A stretch of 64,000 bases of DNA from a virus (Duplodnaviria; Caudoviricetes). A model generated the notes under the pieces. That model did not search any database. It was not told the DNA's origin and was given only the letters and a program-made list of their open reading frames with translations. Where the stretch lies: positions 1 to 64,000 of IMG/VR virus record IMGVR_UViG_3300012038_000181; one strand, given 5' to 3'. Positions within the stretch are counted from its first letter, which is position 1; each line of letters begins with the position of its first letter. Shown here one piece after another: positions 3,201 to 39,961 of this stretch. The position numbers and the translations under genes are program-made.

Positions 3201-5595
3201 CGTCGCGGAGTATCAAGCGCAGAGTTCAGATATTACCTACGCCTACGCAGATGTTCCGCACGAAGGATTTATCAGTGCGCGTTCCAAGATGCACGGGATT
3301 GATTTGCTACCTCTACATGGCTACGTGTGCTTTCTCGATGATGACAACGTGTTGCTACCTCAGTATGTCGAGAAAATGGTTGGGGTGATCGTGCCCGATG
3401 AGAAAGAAGTAGCGATTGGGCAGGTTCAACTCCAGCGCGTTATCGACGGGGAGTACATGATTAAGACCGCTCCTCCCGATGCAAACTCGTTAGGGTTCTC
3501 AGATATTGACGCGCTGAACATTTTAGTAAAGAACGACATTGCTCGATTGTGTCGTGATGAATGGCACCAAGACAGAGACAAAGCAATCGACCATGACTTC
3601 CGCTTTATTCAGAAGTGCCTGACACATACGGGCTATGGATTCGTGCCTGAAGTAGTCGCCTTCCATCGGGACATGACTCGTGAGACTGCCAAAGTCTTTG
3701 ATTGCTTTCCCTTCTTTAATGAGTTGGACTTGTTGGAGATGAGGTTGAGTGAACTCGACAGCGTGGTGGATTACTTCGTTATCGTGGAAGCAAATCTGAC
3801 CCACAGTGGACAGCCAAAACCGTTGTACTTAGCGGAGAATATGGATCGGTTCAAGAAGTGGGAAAAGAAGATTGTGATTCAGGTAGTTGACTTGAGCACG
3901 ATAGAGTTTGCCAACTTTGACTTTGACCCTTGTTGGGTGCGTGAACATCTACAGCGAGATTCAGGGCGTGACGTTGTTAATCGGATGGCTAAGAAGGGAG
4001 ACTTCTGCATCGTCTCAGATGTAGATGAGATTCCCCGCGCTTCAGCGATACAAGAGTACATCGTGAGCGGGCAGTACGAAGTCGGGGTGTTGGCGCTCGA
4101 AAGATTCATGTACGCCCTAAACTATCGGAATGTGACCACCGATGAGCCACAGTTGAATGCCAAGATTATTCCTACGGATAAATTGCATGATCACAATCTG
4201 AATGACGTGCGCTTTGCGGATAAGGAAAGTATTTTCCCGACTCGTCGCATTGAGAACGGTGGGTGGCATTTTACTTTTCAAAATGGTTTAGACCAAGTGA
4301 TTGAAAAGGTGAAAGCGTTCGCACATCAGGAATATGCCGCACCGGAGAAGATAGACCACGAGCGCATGGAGATGCTGTTTCGTGAAGGCAAGGACGTGTA
4401 CTCCGCGAACACGACTTGGGAAACGGTTGAGATAGACGAAACATTTCCGCAGTACGTGAGAGAGCATGAAGATGAACTGCGGGCAAAGGGTTGGATTAAA
4501 CCGCGTGAGACGGGAACAGTAATTAAGCTAGAGGATTGGAAGCAGTCTCGCTTGACCGTTACGGCAGAAATCAGCACCAAAGATCGTTACCAAACCACGT
4601 TGCCGCTAACTATTAGCGCGATCATTAATCAAACTCACAAGCCTGAGAAACTAAAAATCTACGATGATGGCGAGCAAGCGAATCTCTTTGAACTTGCACC
4701 CTTCAGTGGTCTATTGCAGATGGCGATAGATAAAGGCATTGAAGTGGAAGTCTTGACCACGCCGCGCAAGGGCCAAGTAACTAATCATCAGCACTGCTTG
4801 GAAGTTGCCACGACAGATGTGATTTGGCGATGCGACGATGACAATATTCCTGAACCTGATTGCCTACACAATCTGCTTGCGGAAATGAAAGAGGGGGTAG
4901 GAGCTGTGGGAGGGCTGGTTCACCATCCAGGCGGTATTAGCCCATTACCCAAAGGCGTTGATGGCTCGTTAAATGATTTAGCGATGGGATTAAATATTGC
5001 GTGGTTTGATTGGAACAGCGGCCCGAAAGAGTGCGAGCACTTGTACTCGACATTTGCGTATAGAGTTTCATCAGCAAGGGAAGTTGGTGGCTATCCTCTT
5101 GATTTAAGCCCTTGCGGACACCGTGAGGAAAGCTGGCTCACTCATAAAATCCATCGAGCAGGGTACAAGGTAATTTGTACGCCCTACGCTCGTACCGCTC
5201 ACTTGAGAGAAGCAACGGGCGGCATCCGTACTTATACTGACCCCGCAATGTGGGAGCATGATGAGGGCTTGTTTCAAGCGTATCTACGAGCCATTGGGAA
5301 GGTAAGCCCGAAATCCAAAATGATGATTCTGGACATGGGCTTGGGTGATCATCTTGTGGCAAAGGCCGTGTTATCAGAGATTCGGAAACGCAACAACAAT
5401 CAACATCTCGTTATGGCGGTTTGTTTCCCAAGCGTGTTTGAAGAAGAACCCAACGTGACGTTGATTTCCATTGCGGACGCTAAGGCAATCGTGGGCCACG
5501 GCTACCAGAAACATAGTCTGTATGCTTGGATGTGGGATAATAATTGGGACGCACCGTTGGCTGACGCGATGGTGAAATTTTGGGGTGGTCAATGA
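214..5595 (+). CDS. Giant multi-domain glycosyltransferase: GT2 + unknown GT-A-like + GT2 + FkbM methyltransferase + GT2 + GT17-like + GT2 + GT9 N-half
   Basis: SIVIPT/LLLNND, SIIIPTYN/VLLNND, VIDIGANKG..LKIDCEGSE (FkbM), VIIPTY/FLDDDN, FDCFPFFNELDLLEMRL..DYFVIVE..THSG (GT17), WRCDDD, MGLGDHL motifs in order. Confidence 0.92.
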   Translation: MKPRYSIVIPTHKHLTDALIPCLQSIQKYTDLSDCEVLVIANGCGNDFTREFVQTLGAPFKLIWIDEQSGYTKSVNAGIRAAQGEYILLLNNDCQILDSPRNEWLETLVAPMADPQIGMVGIHELWSAEINSNFIVFYCALIRRSVFENIGLPNEIFSPGFGEDIDFCARLMRAGYRYANVDPTANQAGELCIGTFPLYHAGGKTFHDSAHDAGYKAIVERNLKILHNRYQPVKMLAVLVNFGVEGLNHLYQTIDSLKSFDSRYTVDIVVHSNVAVGRDDIREVIHSEAPWGDWLNLPWKCRETLHQERENYDLYLYAEHDHLFTQRNIDAFLEITPFLSDAQIAGFIEWENAPHGERFYPAWHADYGWGESFTNDAGTFAKFTNLHQGSFLATRRQLARAIAVGKEAFLDPQRRLFSSPYGIRERCNTDFYDTGFKKVIPVSRFEDFLIHHLSDHYYGVYGTKCDSEMNKALAELTERPEVSIIIPTYNHCDDLLRPCLESLRVNTDLAKTEILVVSNGCTDGTDAYVKSLGHPFKLISHRAQLGFTKATNIGLRAARGKYLVLLNNDTIIQGSDWIDLMKAPFLARHGVGASGPMKFIGKPDKSNDFIMMFCMMTTRAVVDDIGALDEQFAPGGVEDVDYGLRLLLAGYELVQVPENHAVAFEPDLSTGAFPIFHSGNATYRDEQGWHANLIRNNGRLKAKFPEYFKGLTWIEEMAVSEPQPLDFAMLHEHMKEADSWLHWEMFEVDVNQAKREELAGKTVIDIGANKGFFAIHALELGAKEVYCFEPVHEIYEQQLELVGDIPQVHSFNLAVLDGSVSEVHMHEAGVVSNIWGDPTTSPTPCVSLVTALSRVPDHSNMVLKIDCEGSEFEILFHTPANVIRQFSTIYVEMHDEMNPNFQHKTPELLSYLRSLGFTSEQGPQAATWLSDGSSEDSPVRIYKLRRHEQPRVTVIIPTYQRYGLLREALNSVREQTYRNICALVVADGPDVEVEQIVAEYQAQSSDITYAYADVPHEGFISARSKMHGIDLLPLHGYVCFLDDDNVLLPQYVEKMVGVIVPDEKEVAIGQVQLQRVIDGEYMIKTAPPDANSLGFSDIDALNILVKNDIARLCRDEWHQDRDKAIDHDFRFIQKCLTHTGYGFVPEVVAFHRDMTRETAKVFDCFPFFNELDLLEMRLSELDSVVDYFVIVEANLTHSGQPKPLYLAENMDRFKKWEKKIVIQVVDLSTIEFANFDFDPCWVREHLQRDSGRDVVNRMAKKGDFCIVSDVDEIPRASAIQEYIVSGQYEVGVLALERFMYALNYRNVTTDEPQLNAKIIPTDKLHDHNLNDVRFADKESIFPTRRIENGGWHFTFQNGLDQVIEKVKAFAHQEYAAPEKIDHERMEMLFREGKDVYSANTTWETVEIDETFPQYVREHEDELRAKGWIKPRETGTVIKLEDWKQSRLTVTAEISTKDRYQTTLPLTISAIINQTHKPEKLKIYDDGEQANLFELAPFSGLLQMAIDKGIEVEVLTTPRKGQVTNHQHCLEVATTDVIWRCDDDNIPEPDCLHNLLAEMKEGVGAVGGLVHHPGGISPLPKGVDGSLNDLAMGLNIAWFDWNSGPKECEHLYSTFAYRVSSAREVGGYPLDLSPCGHREESWLTHKIHRAGYKVICTPYARTAHLREATGGIRTYTDPAMWEHDEGLFQAYLRAIGKVSPKSKMMILDMGLGDHLVAKAVLSEIRKRNNNQHLVMAVCFPSVFEEEPNVTLISIADAKAIVGHGYQKHSLYAWMWDNNWDAPLADAMVKFWGGQ

Positions 5596-6077
5596 GGGTT
5601 TTAATTAGTCCATACGCCGCGAGACTCCCAAACGGCAAGCTCAATCCCAAGAATTTCCCGCATTGGGCTGAGTTGGTCAAGATGCTCAATGCCAATGGTC
5701 ATCACGTGATTCAAATCGGCGTCAAAGGTGAACCTCGAATAGATGGGGTGGCTGAATTTCTTCAAGACATACCGTTAAAAGATTTGGTGAATGTTATTAA
5801 CGGTATTGACGTGTGGTGTTCTGTAGATAGTTTTCTTCCCCATTTCTGCGCGACTAATCATCTCAAGTCGGGCGTCGTAATTTGGTCGCAGGCTTCGCCT
5901 AAAATTTGGGGCTACCCGCACAACACCAATCTCTTAAAAGACGAGTCCTACTTGCGAGAGTGGCAGTACGCTCCTTGGTGGGATTGTGAATACAACGAAG
6001 ATGCCTTTGTTGAACCTCAAGTAGTAATGGATGCACTGCATGGCCGACTTACTTTTAATGCGACCGCTAAATCCTGA
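5592..6077 (+). CDS. GT9 (heptosyltransferase-like) C-terminal domain protein
   Basis: ATGA overlap with previous stop; ISPYA..NPKNFPHWAELVKML..HVIQIG, SVDSFLPH motifs of the GT-B second Rossmann domain. Confidence 0.78.
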   Translation: MRVLISPYAARLPNGKLNPKNFPHWAELVKMLNANGHHVIQIGVKGEPRIDGVAEFLQDIPLKDLVNVINGIDVWCSVDSFLPHFCATNHLKSGVVIWSQASPKIWGYPHNTNLLKDESYLREWQYAPWWDCEYNEDAFVEPQVVMDALHGRLTFNATAKS

Positions 6078-7023: not shown

Positions 7024-7545
7024 ATGTCACCACCAATTAACAGCGCATACGCAACCCAACAGTTTAAGACTGATTCATACACAATCACCGTATCAGACGA
7101 TATTGTGCGGTTCACGCTGGCTGCTCCCGCGACTGCTACGCTGCCCTTTTCTCGCAACTGTTCGATAGTTTCAGGGCAGAACCAAAAGATTATTGCTAAC
7201 GGTGATTCAGGTGGTAATGACCTGACAATCGCGGTGGGTGCGGGCGACACGCTCATTGGAGAAACAACCTTGAGCGCGGGCGAGACAGCCTTTATTACTG
7301 GCGATGGAGTCTTGGTCTGGAATTCCATTGGCGCATCGGGCGTCACGGGAAATTCAGGTTACTCAGGCTACTCAGCATACTCAGGATATTCAGGTAAGAG
7401 TGGATTTAGTGGCATCTCTGGATTCTCTGGCTTCAGCGGCATCAGTGGCGCGAGCGGCAAGAGTGGATTCAGCGGTTACACCGGAATCTCTGGATTCAGC
7501 GGTTACTCAGGCACTACTGGTTACTCAGGTTATTCCAAAGCCTAG
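7024..7545 (+). CDS. Virion fibre/decoration protein with Gly-X-Ser repeat tail
   Basis: RBS AGGAG; KTDSYTIT..ATLP beta domain followed by ~23 G-X-S triplets. Confidence 0.7.
   Translation: MSPPINSAYATQQFKTDSYTITVSDDIVRFTLAAPATATLPFSRNCSIVSGQNQKIIANGDSGGNDLTIAVGAGDTLIGETTLSAGETAFITGDGVLVWNSIGASGVTGNSGYSGYSAYSGYSGKSGFSGISGFSGFSGISGASGKSGFSGYTGISGFSGYSGTTGYSGYSKA
7330..7539 (+). repeat. (Gly-X-Ser)n coding repeat, X mostly Y/F/I
   Basis: GYS/GFS/GIS triplets with varied codons. Confidence 0.85.
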
Positions 7546-8031
7546 AGGAGAGATTAAAACAATTTGACTTCGCTTCAAATCACGCCTTACTTGTTCACAT
7601 GCGCGACACGTTCGCCCCTCGCGTCCGTTTGTGTTGATGAAACGGATATTTTCAGGGGTAAACTCGTGACCTCTAAGACAGTGGGTTTTTCGAGCGTTCC
7701 GCGCCGTAGGGCCATTACCTCGCAGGACATTGGTGTGATTCGAAGCGGGCTCAAGGTGTGCCGGATTGACGCAATTGCGTATGCGACACAGGTGATCAAT
7801 CGTTTCGTCCGGTATTTCTCCAACGAAAAACAAATAAGCCAATCGGTGAGCACGTTGTGGAGCACCTTTATAGAGCAATCGAGCGTAACCTTTGAGCTTA
7901 CATCGGGAACCAGTCCAAAGCCAACACTGGCTTGTTCCGTACCACATGTCAGGATGCAAATAGACTTTTGCGAAAAAGCGGGTGAGTATCGCGGTATTTA
8001 CGGGAAGTCTGTTAGAATTATCTGGAATCAT
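7525..8031 (-). CDS. Free-standing HNH homing endonuclease (HNH_3 type with KTHCxRGH Zn module)
   Basis: CWLWTG..RAHRLAY..IDHLCRIRNCVNPAHL..KTHCLRGHEFTPEN; RBS GGAG; antisense in the late operon. Confidence 0.9.
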   Translation of the reverse strand: MIPDNSNRLPVNTAILTRFFAKVYLHPDMWYGTSQCWLWTGSRCKLKGYARLLYKGAPQRAHRLAYLFFVGEIPDETIDHLCRIRNCVNPAHLEPASNHTNVLRGNGPTARNARKTHCLRGHEFTPENIRFINTNGREGRTCRACEQVRRDLKRSQIVLISPLGFGIT

Positions 8032-8698: not shown

Positions 8699-9016
8699 AT
8701 GGCGACAAGCGCAGCTCCATTTGGGACAGCACTAGAGATAATTCGTTCCGTTACGGTCACCACTATTATTACTGATGGGGCGACTAACCTTGTGACCTCT
8801 CCGTCAGGCGGAGCGAAGACCGTCACGCTCCCATCTATTGCCAACATGATTGCCAGTCAAAACCTGCTGATTTTTATTAACAATGCGGCGGGGGGCGGCG
8901 GCAACATTACCGTCGCGGCGGCAGGGAGTGATGCCATCATCGGGCAAACAGCGGTAGCAGTTGGTACGGGAGTTACCTACCGTCACGATGGCCGCGCAAC
9001 CTGGTATTCCACATAA
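8699..9016 (+). CDS. Third, repeat-less paralog of the small beta-domain virion protein
   Basis: AKTVTLP..LIFINN..NITVAAAGSDAIIG..DGRATW aligns with 7024/8120 head domains; RBS GGAGG. Confidence 0.65.
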   Translation: MATSAAPFGTALEIIRSVTVTTIITDGATNLVTSPSGGAKTVTLPSIANMIASQNLLIFINNAAGGGGNITVAAAGSDAIIGQTAVAVGTGVTYRHDGRATWYST

Positions 9017-9049
9017 GGCGACGATATGACCTCGACATCGCAGAAGTTT

Positions 9050-9688
9050 TTACTCTACGTGTTTCCAAGTTTGGCGATGTACGATTTTGGCGATACCCGA
9101 AATTGAGAGATTAAATTGTTTAGCAAGTTTACCAAAACTCGATTGGCCCGTAGCGTAAGTGGTGCGAATTTCACGTACTTGCGCTTCGCTCAATCGTGCA
9201 TGATGGGAATCCTCGCCAACGATCATAGAAACAATTTTAAGACGGCCCGAAAGCACTTCTTCCAAAGGGTGTCGTTCCAATCTGCCGTACAGCACTTGAT
9301 AAGACAGTCCCAAGTGTTGTGCCCATTCCGCAATCGAACGAGTCTCACCGTTGAAAGTAATCGACGTAGGATGGCGTCGGTTGTCCACTTGCTCCTTACG
9401 AGTGGCCCATCGCACGTTATTAGGCTCGTAGTTTCCGTTCTTATCGGGGTAGCGATCTATTGTATGTTTAGGGGTGGGGCGAAGCCCAACATCCCTAATG
9501 AAGCACGCAAAAGAATCAATCCATTCTTGACAGACGGTGATACCGCGTCCGCCGTAGTAAGAATAGGCTTGATTGTTTGGATTCAAGCATCGTTGCTTCA
9601 TAGAATCCCAAGTGTGGTATTCAGGACTTCCCGAAAGCCCGTGAGATTCGTGGTGTTGACGAATTTGTGGAGTATAGTTACTCGGCAT
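9050..9688 (-). CDS. Free-standing HNH-like homing endonuclease with C-terminal HTH
   Basis: EYHTWDSMKQRC..YYGGRGITVC..TIDR..NGNYEPNNVRWAT; C-term LSEAQVREIR..LAKQFNLS..TWKH; RBS AAGGAG. Confidence 0.88.
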   Translation of the reverse strand: MPSNYTPQIRQHHESHGLSGSPEYHTWDSMKQRCLNPNNQAYSYYGGRGITVCQEWIDSFACFIRDVGLRPTPKHTIDRYPDKNGNYEPNNVRWATRKEQVDNRRHPTSITFNGETRSIAEWAQHLGLSYQVLYGRLERHPLEEVLSGRLKIVSMIVGEDSHHARLSEAQVREIRTTYATGQSSFGKLAKQFNLSISGIAKIVHRQTWKHVE

Positions 9689-9767: not shown

Positions 9768-9780
9768 AAGAGGCGACGAT

Positions 9781-10164
9781 ATGAGTGGATCGCAGAAGTT
9801 TTTCAGCGAGGTTTGTTCATTAACAGAGCGCACGCCGACAAGCGTAGCGTCGTTGATGATTGCCGCAGGCTATGGCAGAGAGAAAGATGCAAATAACGAC
9901 ATCACGACCCAACCGTCACTAGACGGGTTCATTGGTTCGCAGTGTTTCATCATCCCGCAGACTGCGGGCATCTATATAGGTCACGATCAGTATGTCTCGA
10001 ACACGGCGTTGAGTGGGCCACCAAGAATGTATAAAGGGGTTCCCGTAGCAAGTGGTGATAATTACAACGTGGTGAATCCTATGCGTGGGATAGTTGATGC
10101 AAACGCTATCTGGTTGTTCTCGACCACGACGCAGGAAATTGGCATCGTATTTGTGGCAACGTAA
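9781..10164 (+). CDS. Hypothetical virion structural protein
   Basis: RBS AGAGG then ATG at 9781; beta-rich 127 aa. Confidence 0.65.
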   Translation: MSGSQKFFSEVCSLTERTPTSVASLMIAAGYGREKDANNDITTQPSLDGFIGSQCFIIPQTAGIYIGHDQYVSNTALSGPPRMYKGVPVASGDNYNVVNPMRGIVDANAIWLFSTTTQEIGIVFVAT

Positions 10165-37018: not shown

Positions 37019-37517
37019 CATCGCAAGTAGCTGTCCAGTCCCTAAGCTGGAAATCTATTTGCCCTTCCTCAACGAAGCAATGGCTGAAGGCGAAATCAAC
37101 ACACCTCTCCGACAGTCAATGTTTCTCGCTCAACTACTGCATGAGTCCGGCGATTTCAAATGGATGGAAGAAATAGCATCAGGCGCAGCCTATGAAGGAC
37201 GCAAAGACTTAGGGAATACACACACCGGAGACGGTAAACGCTTCAAGGGCAGAGGCCCAATCCAATTAACAGGTAGAGCCAACTACAAGGCCGCAGGAGA
37301 CGCGCTAGGCGTGGACTTTATCAACAGTCCTGAGATAGCAGCGTTCCCTGAATACGGCTTTAGAACCGCAGTCTGGTTCTGGGGTACACGTAACTTGAAT
37401 GTCCCGTCTGACGCAGGAGACATCAAGACTGTAACCAAGAAGATCAACGGGGGCTTCAACGGTCTTGAGGATAGAAAAGCGCGATACGCAAAAGCAAAGA
37501 AGGTGCTCGGTGTATGA
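36987..37517 (+). CDS. Endolysin, glycoside hydrolase family 19
   Basis: MFLAQLLHESG..EE..GRKDLGN..GDGKRFKGRGPIQLTGRANY..TKKINGGFNGLEDR. Confidence 0.92.
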   Translation: MSDLTLTQLANIASSCPVPKLEIYLPFLNEAMAEGEINTPLRQSMFLAQLLHESGDFKWMEEIASGAAYEGRKDLGNTHTGDGKRFKGRGPIQLTGRANYKAAGDALGVDFINSPEIAAFPEYGFRTAVWFWGTRNLNVPSDAGDIKTVTKKINGGFNGLEDRKARYAKAKKVLGV

Positions 37518-37705
37518 CGTTGGAGATAGCCGACATCGCCGCGTTAACAGGCATGATGGTAGTAGTTACCGGAGCCTTGGCCGTAATCACGAGATATTAT
37601 GTGAAGGCAGAAATTCAACAAGCGGTAAATGAATTGCGCTTGGAGTTATCCAAGGAAAGAGCAAGTATTTTGGAGTCACGAGTAGGAGAGAATAACAAGG
37701 CTTAA
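37514..37705 (+). CDS. Small single-TM protein (holin-like)
   Basis: N-terminal TM plus coiled coil; ATGA overlap. Confidence 0.55.
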   Translation: MTLEIADIAALTGMMVVVTGALAVITRYYVKAEIQQAVNELRLELSKERASILESRVGENNKA

Positions 37706-37914
37706 AATCAACGGGAACGACACCAGATAAAGCGTTCTCACCCCTGAGAATTATCCGATGCCGCCCCCGATTAGGTTGCCAATGTATACAGTAAGCGAGT
37801 AGAACGTAACTGAGAAAAGGTTACAAAATCAAGTATTAAACGTACAAAGGGTAGTGGAATAGAACCTTTTTGAAACTGATTTGAACCCGACTATGGCATA
37901 TATTTGTCGCCATT

Positions 37915-38409
37915 ATGCGAGCCGAACACTTGAGCGATAACGTGAATGTACATCTCCATGCAACTAGAGCAGCAGAACGGGTTAAGACCAACGGACGGAT
38001 GCCACAAATGTTGGATACGTCACAACCTTTTGCCAATCACGGGGATAGTGTATGGAAACGCTTTAAGGAACGCTGGTTTAAATGGGAGTACAACCTTACC
38101 GTGGCAGGAAGAACGATAGAAAAAGGGTGGGTCGTCCCTCAACCTCTCGGTATTGCCCTCATTCTCGTAATGATCAGCGGTACTAGCGTGTTGTATTGGC
38201 GCATTATTGACAGCCAGGCATCGCAAGACAGAGAAGTCACTGAGAAGCTGCAAGCCCAACGCGATCTCCTCATAGAAGTCAAAACAACGCTAGCAATCAA
38301 GGCTGAGGCCGACAGAGAGAAGCAGCGCAAGAACGAAGAAGACGATCAGCTTCAAGATATGCAGATTCAGGACTTAAAGGACAAGCTCTTGGTACTCAAC
38401 TCGAAATGA
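37915..38409 (+). CDS. Membrane-anchored coiled-coil protein (start uncertain)
   Basis: LGIALILVMISGTSVLYW followed by heptads. Confidence 0.6.
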   Translation: MRAEHLSDNVNVHLHATRAAERVKTNGRMPQMLDTSQPFANHGDSVWKRFKERWFKWEYNLTVAGRTIEKGWVVPQPLGIALILVMISGTSVLYWRIIDSQASQDREVTEKLQAQRDLLIEVKTTLAIKAEADREKQRKNEEDDQLQDMQIQDLKDKLLVLNSK

Positions 38410-38432
38410 GGTTAGCTTAAATGGGTGGGCAG

Positions 38433-39113
38433 TCAAGATCGTTGCCGCAGTCGGCGCACATTCCATCCGGTCTTGTCGGTATCGACAGGAATAGTGAGCG
38501 TGTCTTCCGTACTCCATCCGTCAATCAGGCGGTTCCAGATATTAGTTTGACTGATTCCCAACTCGGTCGCCCACTGAGAAATCGTTTGAACTTTCCCTCG
38601 AAATCTCAAGCGGCGATTGGTTCGCTTATTGTTGGTCTGTTCTGGCATAGTGGCCCATACGCAGTTATCAGGAGAGTAGCCGAGTTCGTTGTTTTCGCGC
38701 TCAAGCGAGTGATTAGCGGAAGGACGTTTGCCCATATCACTCAGAAAGTTAGCAGCCGTTTTCCATCGGTCGCAGACCGTAATACCCCGCGCTCCGTAGT
38801 TGTGGTATTCGACATTCTTAGGGTTCCCGCAGCGATCCATCATGTGCGCCCAAGCGGCATACTCAGGAGTCTTGGTCATACCATGTTTGAACTGTCGCGC
38901 TATTTGCAGTTCTGTTTTATGACATCCGCAGGAAACGCTAGATTCATTCTTCAGCGTATTGCCGCGCACTATCTTCTCTTTCCCACACGCACAGCGACAC
39001 AGCCAACGCGGAACGGTGCTTCCGCCTTTGGCATACTTGTAAATGGCTTTATCGTGAAATTTAAGCACAGTCCAGCGTCCGAACGATTGGCCTGTAATGT
39101 CTTGTATCTGCAT
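38433..39113 (-). CDS. Free-standing HNH-like homing endonuclease (AP2/NUMOD-type N-terminus)
   Basis: DITGQSFGRWTVL..WLCRCACG..SCGC..EYAAWAHMMDRC..YGARGITVCDRW..SLERENNELGYSPDNCVWAT. Confidence 0.9.
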   Translation of the reverse strand: MQIQDITGQSFGRWTVLKFHDKAIYKYAKGGSTVPRWLCRCACGKEKIVRGNTLKNESSVSCGCHKTELQIARQFKHGMTKTPEYAAWAHMMDRCGNPKNVEYHNYGARGITVCDRWKTAANFLSDMGKRPSANHSLERENNELGYSPDNCVWATMPEQTNNKRTNRRLRFRGKVQTISQWATELGISQTNIWNRLIDGWSTEDTLTIPVDTDKTGWNVRRLRQRS

Positions 39114-39148
39114 GCATTAAGCATAGCATAACAAAGGAGAAATGGGAA

Positions 39149-39382
39149 GTGGGGGGCCAGTCTTGCAAATTGAAAATCATTCTCAACGGTGGCGTGGTTG
39201 AATCCGTCGCTCACAAACTCTGCTATGCAGTCGAAGAAACCCCTGCGGACGCTATCGACTATGATTACGGGATTAAGATCGTGGAACAGTTGAACAAGGC
39301 TGAGGATGCCATGTTCGCCGCCCAACGATTATTCCTTGAGTCGCAAGACTTCCACGGGCCGTGGCCTAAATCTCTTTCGTAG
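39149..39382 (+). CDS. Hypothetical protein with a regenerated start
   Basis: GTG after AAAGGAG; MGGQS start duplicated at 38421. Confidence 0.55.
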   Translation: MGGQSCKLKIILNGGVVESVAHKLCYAVEETPADAIDYDYGIKIVEQLNKAEDAMFAAQRLFLESQDFHGPWPKSLS

Positions 39383-39556
39383 TTACCCCTTAATCGGCCA
39401 ACCAAAGGCAGCGATACCAAGTAACGCCAAGAGAACCCACAGCAAAAGACTGTAGCCAAAGGGTCGATAGTTAGGCGCACTTGTCGGTGGATAGATAAAC
39501 CAACCAAAGATTAACGTCAGCAGCATCAAAATCCAGAATAATAAAGCTATAGTCAA
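39383..39556 (-). CDS. Small two-TM protein
   Basis: TTG start after AGGAG; hydrophobic hairpin. Confidence 0.6.
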   Translation of the reverse strand: MTIALLFWILMLLTLIFGWFIYPPTSAPNYRPFGYSLLLWVLLALLGIAAFGWPIKG

Positions 39557-39766
39557 AATAGTTTCTCCTAGTCGAGATATGGGACTACTAAAGGGGTGAG
39601 GCCCAAGTATAGCACTACATCCAAGTTCCGAGTTGGTAATGCTTAGGCGGCAGCGGTTCGTCAATAATGCGCCTATCCTTTGCAATCCAGCGAGCAAGCC
39701 GATCAATCGGTACGCCTAGCAACGCTCGCACAAAGCAGAACACCATTACATTAAACCAAAGGTATC

Positions 39767-39961
39767 TCATGTTGTTACCGCCTTTCTCGGTCTACCTAAA
39801 GCCCTCGGATAGTTCCTTACCTGGTCAGCTTGTTTCTCAGTCAGAACGAAGACTCTCCCGATCTGTTTCGGTTTAATGTTCAAGAGTTTAATCCTATTGG
39901 TAAGTTGTCGTTGTTTAACCTTTAGTTCAGCTTCTAAGTCCTTAGTAGTGATATAATTCAT
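39767..39961 (-). CDS. HTH DNA-binding protein
   Basis: ITTKDLEAELKVKQRQL..QIGRVFVL..GRPRK. Confidence 0.65.
   Translation of the reverse strand: MNYITTKDLEAELKVKQRQLTNRIKLLNIKPKQIGRVFVLTEKQADQVRNYPRALGRPRKAVTT

Follow-up and report, generated by a model that had tools for sequence, protein, structure and literature searches.

An antisense HNH endonuclease gene at a phage spanin/ORF77 junction probably carries the start of the gene it displaces and leaves a relic of the resident start

The stretch of DNA analyzed here (the window) covers positions 1 to 64,000 of an IMG/VR phage record of 72.5 kb (IMGVR_UViG_3300012038_000181), the completeness of which is rated at 97%. In its rightward late/lysis block, a free-standing HNH-type endonuclease gene, HNH2, lies backward between an i-spanin-like gene and a 77-codon open reading frame (ORF), ORF77, which is the last gene of the block (Table 1). 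The product of the spanin-like gene, the final lysis gene ahead of the junction, has one transmembrane segment and a coiled coil. Its stop codon (TGA, 38407-38409) overlaps a Shine-Dalgarno (SD) sequence, GAGG, that precedes a stub of five codons, MGGQS. At the other end of HNH2, the working start of ORF77 (GTG GGG GGC CAG TCT, 39149-39163) encodes MGGQS once more, and the two copies are identical at 11 of 15 nucleotides (nt), the four differences being the first base of the start codon and three wobble positions. Since the HNH ORF occupies 38433-39113 of the minus strand, its stop codon reads as TCA 38433-38435 on the plus strand, a triplet that doubles as codon 5 of the stub. Between the HNH start codon and GTG 39149 lies a right arm of 35 nt. 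On the plus strand, it contains a TAA (39129-39131) ending the sense frame that spans the insert, the SD sequence AAAGGAG (39133-39139) and a 9-nt spacer; on the minus strand, it forms the 5' leader or putative promoter region of HNH2, with a conserved TTATGCTA motif.

An earlier interpretation of this locus, made without database searches and termed the sequence-only reading below, had located both MGGQS copies and their four start-base or wobble differences, and had taken the HNH stop to be the last codon of the remnant. On reading the sequence, all coordinates and differences proved exact, and TCA 38433-38435 is indeed shared by stub and stop. The pattern ATG/GTG/TTG-GGN-GGN-CAR-Ser, searched on both strands of the whole 72.5-kb genome, occurs at 38421 and 39149 and nowhere else, with ~0.05 occurrences expected per genome. 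We estimate the chance of such a copy landing within 30 nt past the spanin stop at ~1e-5. A longer stub, extending past codon 5, is ruled out, as the following 15 nt match at 4 of 15 positions. Not counting an overlap of up to 3 nt with the stop of the inserted cassette, the stub measures 12 nt.

Table 1. Features of the spanin/HNH2/ORF77 junction and of the antisense HNH genes of the phage (positions in the window)
Feature	Position	Strand	Basis
i-spanin-like gene	37915..38409	+	ORF list; weak Rz-like spanin PHROG matches; alignment with upstream genes of relatives
Stub Shine-Dalgarno GAGG, 9 nt ahead of ATG 38421	38408..38411	+	sequence; SD position in empty sites
Stub ATG GGT GGG CAG TCA (MGGQS), read as relic of the resident ORF77 5' end	38421..38435	+	genome pattern search; empty-site geometry
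Sense frame of 236 codons from the stub ATG through the antisense HNH, in codon register	38421..39131	+	ORF list; HNH2 codon counts
Free-standing HNH-type endonuclease gene (HNH2), 226 amino acids	38433..39113	-	phrog_374, homologs, AF2 model
Cassette right arm, 35 nt	39114..39148	both	alignment of three filled sites
ORF77, 77 amino acids, GTG start, N-terminus MGGQSCKLKIILNGG	39149..39382	+	homologs aligned from residue 1; alignment A3
Three antisense HNH genes of the phage	7525-8031, 9050-9688, 38433-39113	-	codon counts

The corresponding junction is empty in 9-10 relatives, where an i-spanin-like gene is directly followed by an ORF77 homolog on the same strand. These are the loci L004, L005, L006, L007, L008, L093, L094 and L095, in which the spanin stop and the ORF77 start are separated by 1, 4, 54, 12, 1, 15, 15 and 26 nt, respectively, and one further locus listed without DNA. 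The empty-site homologs begin with ATG or GTG followed by GGN GGN, and their SD sequences are placed relative to their own ORF77 start as GAGG is to the ATG of the stub. The stub thus matches the empty-site layout, with the spanin TGA, 11 nt containing an SD sequence and then ATG GGT GGG CAG TCA. Judged by this placement, GAGG 38408-38411 is the original ribosome site of ORF77. Furthermore, natural ORF77 alleles vary at the same wobble positions that distinguish the two copies in the window, and also in the use of ATG or GTG. The junction that the sequence-only reading predicted for empty-site alleles is accordingly present in them, which favors an insertion.

The nearest empty relative by spanin type and ORF77 identity (61%) is L006, which has an unusually long spacer of 54 nt (L006, 1913-1971). 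The 3' end of this spacer, GGAGGAATGGG-N3-GTGGG, matches the right arm of the cassette, so that L006 could represent a donor-type allele or the trace of a lost cassette. Taking the whole 54-nt spacer as the scar of a deleted HNH gene is unsupported, the 11-nt GGAGGAATGGG match being the only significant part.

Filled sites are three in number, namely the window, L009 and L010/L011, each with the HNH gene in antisense orientation, flanked by a spanin-like gene and an ORF77 homolog. The junction is therefore polymorphic for the presence or absence of the HNH gene at one fixed site, with 3 filled against 9-10 empty alleles. The HNH proteins of L009 and L010/L011 are the two closest homologs of HNH2 (67% and 61% identical, respectively), while the ORF77 homologs are 33% and 51% identical and the spanins and nearly all other genes are unmatched. 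No other gene comes close to the HNH in similarity between these otherwise nearly unmatched phages, hence the cassette has moved horizontally to one site. DNA identity between the filled sites peaks at 83-93% over 39110-39154, amounts to 55-85% within the HNH gene and falls off inside ORF77. The right side, that is the right arm and the 5' end of ORF77, aligns at 70-93% identity across the filled sites; leftward of the HNH stop the profile identity is 10-47%, which we read as no homology. The right arm together with GTGGG is the best-conserved part of the cassette and is common to all three filled sites, which indicates that the SD sequence and the GTG travel with it.

Whereas the right junction is constant, the left junctions differ among the three filled sites. 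Neither L009 nor L010 contains a stub, and the spanin stop there abuts or overlaps the HNH stop. The filled L010 and the empty L004 have a common spanin end, ...AAAAGTAACTAAC, and diverge exactly after it. The HNH C-termini of the window (...RQRS-stop) and L010 (...RQSS-stop) end at the same position, hence TCA is the cassette's own stop, overlapping codon 5 of the stub. Set against the empty L004, L010 has CTAAC both at its spanin end and at its HNH end, which may be a junction microhomology. The spanin type of the window differs from those of L009 and L010 and is nearest to the spanins of L006 and L096 when aligned with the genes that precede the junction in relatives. Next in similarity to HNH2 are P0035 (L096) and P0040 (L097), which occupy other sites where ORF77 is absent. 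In L096, the HNH gene (L096:175-891, 56% identical protein) is antisense after a gene for 107 amino acids that follows a window-like spanin, which makes it a different insertion site in a phage related at this locus. When IMG/VR was scanned with the right-arm motif GGAGNAATGGGAAGTGGG, the 8 matches were unrelated and had neither an HNH gene nor ORF77 nearby.

Altogether, we propose, with a probability of roughly 0.7, that a backward HNH homing cassette sits at the spanin/ORF77 junction and supplies the start of ORF77, and that the stub is a relic of the resident allele left by one-sided homing. The cassette would extend from ~38433 to ~39150 and consist of the HNH gene and the 35-nt right arm, which, with the next bases, would provide the SD sequence, the GTG start and the first ORF77 codons. 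As the right arm brings these signals, ORF77 would stay expressed wherever the cassette lands. The left junction would lie 12-15 nt inside the resident ORF77, leaving its ribosome site, its ATG and 4-5 codons against the HNH stop. We envisage that the endonuclease would cut an HNH-less phage near the ORF77 start, and that an HNH-bearing phage would then serve as the repair template. On the right side, recombination would proceed via the conserved 5' coding sequence of ORF77; on the left side, the spanin genes are unrelated and offer no homology, hence the ends would have been joined illegitimately at a microhomology of 2-3 nt (TCA). On this view, the recipient allele would survive as the stub, and the donor allele would provide the working copy. 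From this follows that the two differ by silent changes only, as natural alleles vary in the same way, and that the GTG context recurs in the other cassettes and in the empty L006. The silent differences could also render the resident copy a poor substrate for the putative enzyme, that is, confer immunity.

An HNH insertion with a start stub and a replacement start was already the core of the sequence-only reading, and empty and filled relatives agree with it. As such, the antisense HNH insertion, the start relic and the cassette-borne start stand, while three further elements, a designed recoding, a different HNH subfamily and a general strategy, do not stand as worded. With respect to the synonymous recoding, all differences are silent as claimed, but a designed feature is not needed to account for them, given that natural alleles vary likewise and that the GTG context occurs in L009, L010 and L006.

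Several points weigh against the proposed origin. The stub is merely 12-15 nt long, and both the microhomology and the direction of transfer are what we infer. An HNH-less allele of this phage was not found, as contigs of four sequencing runs from four studies carry the filled allele and none skips the HNH gene. These contigs, of low depth over 37500-39900, match at ≥99% for nearly all pieces, and both junctions are bridged piecewise. Parts of the stretch are contained in 19 public runs, with no RNA run listed; those containing at least one fifth of the sampled words, 7 in all, are metagenomes from freshwater, freshwater sediment or sediment. As to the enzyme itself, searches of Pfam (to E≤10), of NCBIfam and of the PDB by sequence or profile give nothing usable for HNH2, and its best solved fold match, the PacI HNH restriction enzyme (3m7k_A; root-mean-square deviation 2.2 Å over 76 residues, model residues 77-166), is moderate with Z 6.3, compared to the ~8 that the tool advises. 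Finally, the three filled sites could stem from one old insertion, with the spanin modules swapped later at the nuclease boundary.

The insert has a further property that bears on its function. From the stub ATG, a sense frame of 236 codons runs through the antisense HNH gene in codon register and ends at a TAA 1 nt ahead of the SD sequence AAAGGAG of ORF77. With expected counts of TTA, CTA and TCA derived from the amino-acid content and the synonymous codon usage of the genome, HNH2 contains 0 of these codons where 6.3 are expected (P=0.001), while 9 and 13 stops occur in its other two antisense frames. The three antisense HNH genes of the phage together contain 3 (19.9 expected), with other A-ending codons undepleted (126 observed, 110 expected). 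For the HNH of L010 (L010:632-1300), the count is 0 (6.2 expected), and for that of L009 2 (3.9 expected). The stop-free frame covers most of the other two antisense HNH genes of the phage and all of that in L010; the few stops present are confined to the leftmost end, and the distance from the end of each sense frame to the start of the following gene is 0-17 nt. Family-wide, TTA, CTA and TCA are not depleted, with observed/expected ratios of 1.25 in 17 antisense loci and 1.40 in 40 co-oriented loci. This codon pattern suggests that sense-strand translation across the insert matters in this phage group.

A tentative explanation, which we do not hold to be the likelier one but which is a proposal on function compatible with the homing origin, is that the SD sequence and ATG of the stub initiate translation of the 236-codon frame, which would be selected to stay stop-free and would release ribosomes at the SD sequence of ORF77. 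Such a ribosome bridge would avert polarity of the Rho type and tie the translation of ORF77 to the late operon. The open frame with its end 1 nt before AAAGGAG speaks for it, as does the codon depletion in HNH2, in the three antisense HNH genes together and in L010, which is absent from the family at large. Conversely, two stops interrupt the frame in L009, L010 has no SD-led start but just a TTG 5 nt past the spanin stop, and the codon depletion may have another cause.

As to the origin of the stub, an in-situ duplication of the first 15 nt of ORF77, followed by silent changes that escape cleavage or recombination between the repeats, would account for all four differences being silent, and homing-endonuclease carriers are generally protected by changes of the target site, as with the MobA bypass insert that protects gene 60 (bioRxiv 10.1101/2022.08.31.505936). 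We nevertheless consider it unlikely, since a fill-in copy would begin identical and occur at every insertion, whereas the L009 and L010 cassettes have the GTG start and SD context and no duplication, and the empty L006 likewise has GGAGGAATGGG-N3-GTGGG; moreover, natural alleles vary at the same wobble positions. That the upstream MGGQS resembles ORF77 by coincidence is hardly credible: on the bare DNA the copies agree at 13/16 positions, a weak similarity with a local score of 17 that ~5% of random region pairs of the same spacing attain, yet the pattern is otherwise found solely at the true start, with 0.05 occurrences expected, and the stub sits at the exact empty-site position with an SD sequence.

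HNH2 is, by its family matches, a member of the HNH endonucleases. It matches phrog_374 ('HNH endonuclease', E 2.6e-63) and phrog_3377 (E 4.4e-49), has 1213 homologs at E≤1e-20 and yields an AF2 model with a pLDDT of 91. In the model, an N-terminal SH3/Tudor-like β-barrel with CxC...CxC (residues 1-60) is followed by a central, putatively ββα core that is PacI-like over residues 77-166 and by a helical C-terminal domain. Structural neighbors in BFVD carry HNH or homing endonuclease annotations, down to E 1e-23, and a Foldseek search of the whole model against the PDB returned nothing. As a side aspect, this large phage family (>1200 proteins at that threshold) stands outside Pfam, NCBIfam and, by sequence, any solved structure. 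The sequence-only reading had assigned HNH2 to a different subfamily than HNH1, the product of the antisense HNH gene at 9050-9688. This assignment does not hold, as both share one putative catalytic core (42% identity, E 1e-33) and match the same two PHROGs, and only their flanking domains differ.

The upstream region of HNH2 bears on its possible expression. There is no SD sequence ahead of its ATG (39114-39135, minus strand), and TTATGCTAnGCTnA is conserved 1-14 nt upstream of the HNH ATG in 3/3 filled sites. This conserved TTATGCTAnGCTnA may be a -10-like element with a very short leader; the view of the TTATGCTA motif as a putative -10 element is our own reading, and a simple promoter scan found no sigma-70-like site for HNH2. 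Alternatively, transcription of the leftward genes to the right of ORF77 could read through into HNH2.

ORF77 itself was assessed by its homologs. Seven homologs of 76-80 amino acids, 48-62% identical to ORF77, align from residue 1, and MGG, C6, K9 and ILNGG are invariant across them. An exhaustive search extended the family to 23 representatives, and the wider alignment retains MGGxxCKxKIILNGG. On this comparison, ORF77 is a real, conserved gene, and because the family alignment begins at residue 1, its start is evidently GTG 39149. The product on record has 70 amino acids and covers 91% of the query, therefore lacking seven conserved N-terminal residues; a start at TTG 39170 would yield this length. 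In practical terms, the product proposed by the gene caller is too short at the N-terminus, and the family alignment supports GTG 39149. Members of the family span 76-103 amino acids and combine the near-invariant N-terminus with a C-terminal GPWPxSL; mostly they lie directly 3' of an i-spanin-like gene, often where rightward meet leftward genes. None of the family libraries searched names ORF77. Among INPHARED phages, megablast and tblastn gave no match to the region, ORF77 or the spanin, and single-protein scans of IMG/VR with ORF77 and with the spanin gave nothing. A scan of IMG/VR using alignment A1 returned one locus, L008, and a scan of metagenome contigs one distant locus, L092.

A comparable arrangement surrounds the HNH1 gene of the same phage, which the sequence-only reading had counted as the first case of a general strategy. 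Here, 9016-9051 and 9771-9803 form an imperfect direct repeat with a local score of 48, matched by 0/5000 random pairs, which covers the SD sequence, the ATG and the first codons (stub MTSTSQKF and intact MSGSQKFF, the latter continuing to MSGSQKFFSE). The L010 homolog of the intact gene (5487-5873, minus strand) starts with MANTLSRKFFS and has no HNH gene adjoining. We then scored direct repeats between the flanks of 79 IMG/VR loci with HNHs 35-49% identical to HNH2. Flank repeats at p<0.01 were found in 4/79 loci, compared to ~0.8 expected. The clearest is L074, from an unrelated phage, in which an SD-containing segment of 22 bp is repeated at 20/22 identity; L074:2482-2503 lies 3 nt before the ATG of a co-oriented HNH gene, and L074:3134-3155 just past its stop, before the next ATG. 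The insert in L074 appears to have duplicated a translation-initiation region. The flank repeats of L086 and L032 are AT-rich and less convincing. Considering the 4/79 loci and the sister insertions in L009 and L010 without a stub, the start-stub device recurs but is a minority outcome. A general strategy thus finds partial support in the excess of flank repeats over expectation, while the low frequency and the two stubless insertions at the very same site speak against it.

In known phage systems, the closest parallels are MobA (T4 gene 39/60) and MobE (Aeh1 nrdA), elements that bear new N-termini for the genes they interrupt (bioRxiv 10.1101/2022.08.31.505936). As there, an HNH element interrupts a coding sequence and furnishes what follows it with a new translation start, one site is occupied across diverged phage clades, and an adjacent sequence change protects the carrier (same source). 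In contrast to these, the cut here lies 4-5 codons into the gene, the same N-terminus is supplied and not a novel extension, two working halves do not result, the endonuclease is encoded antisense, and a bypass element is absent. Indeed, what remains upstream is a five-codon stub that runs into the antisense HNH gene, and, judged by its homologs, the ORF downstream is of full length.

The proposed junctions resemble one-sided homing in T4, for which illegitimate microhomology junctions are documented (Parker and Belfort, as summarized in PMC2988022). In that account, homology is confined to one side, the junction opposite is formed non-homologously at a microhomology, and recipient sequence is kept beside the break; our locus likewise has homology at the right arm and the ORF77 5' end and none on the left. 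The T4 case is an engineered plasmid-phage cross, whereas ours is inferred from natural genomes. There is also a likeness to the intronless homing of the seg and mob genes of T-even phages, in which host promoters are embedded in or carried by the endonuclease gene (PMC2988022): a free-standing gene at an intergenic junction spreads with its flanks and carries expression signals of the downstream gene. The T4 examples differ in that they carry promoters, not an SD sequence and start codon, and in that all except segD are co-oriented with their neighbors. Nuclease genes at phage exchange boundaries (PMC10448857) constitute a third likeness, as HNH2 sits exactly where otherwise unrelated phages begin and cease to be homologous; a word search of that paper gave no mention of a remnant, a start codon or a direct repeat. 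A transposon-like target-site duplication was considered as well and rejected, the repeats being identical at 11/15 positions and missing from L009 and L010. Hence, the locus is a natural variant of known homing-endonuclease behavior and not a new kind of system. What sets it apart from the known cases are the restored, identical N-terminus, the five-codon stub left behind and the antisense orientation of the endonuclease gene.

In summary, the junction offers a natural, base-resolved example of a free-standing, putative homing endonuclease entering a coding sequence without an intron or intein, with the ribosome site and the start of the displaced gene carried by the element. The break probably fell at the stub or close to it and, if so, the conserved 5' end of ORF77 is the likely target of the putative enzyme. 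From the set of empty and filled sites it is seen that one cassette has reached the same junction in phages with almost nothing else in common. The part most worth following is the open sense frame: if ribosomes do traverse the insert, a backward selfish gene could sit in a late operon without polarity, and the frame-specific dearth of sense-strand stops points to a testable rule by which operons would tolerate antisense selfish genes.

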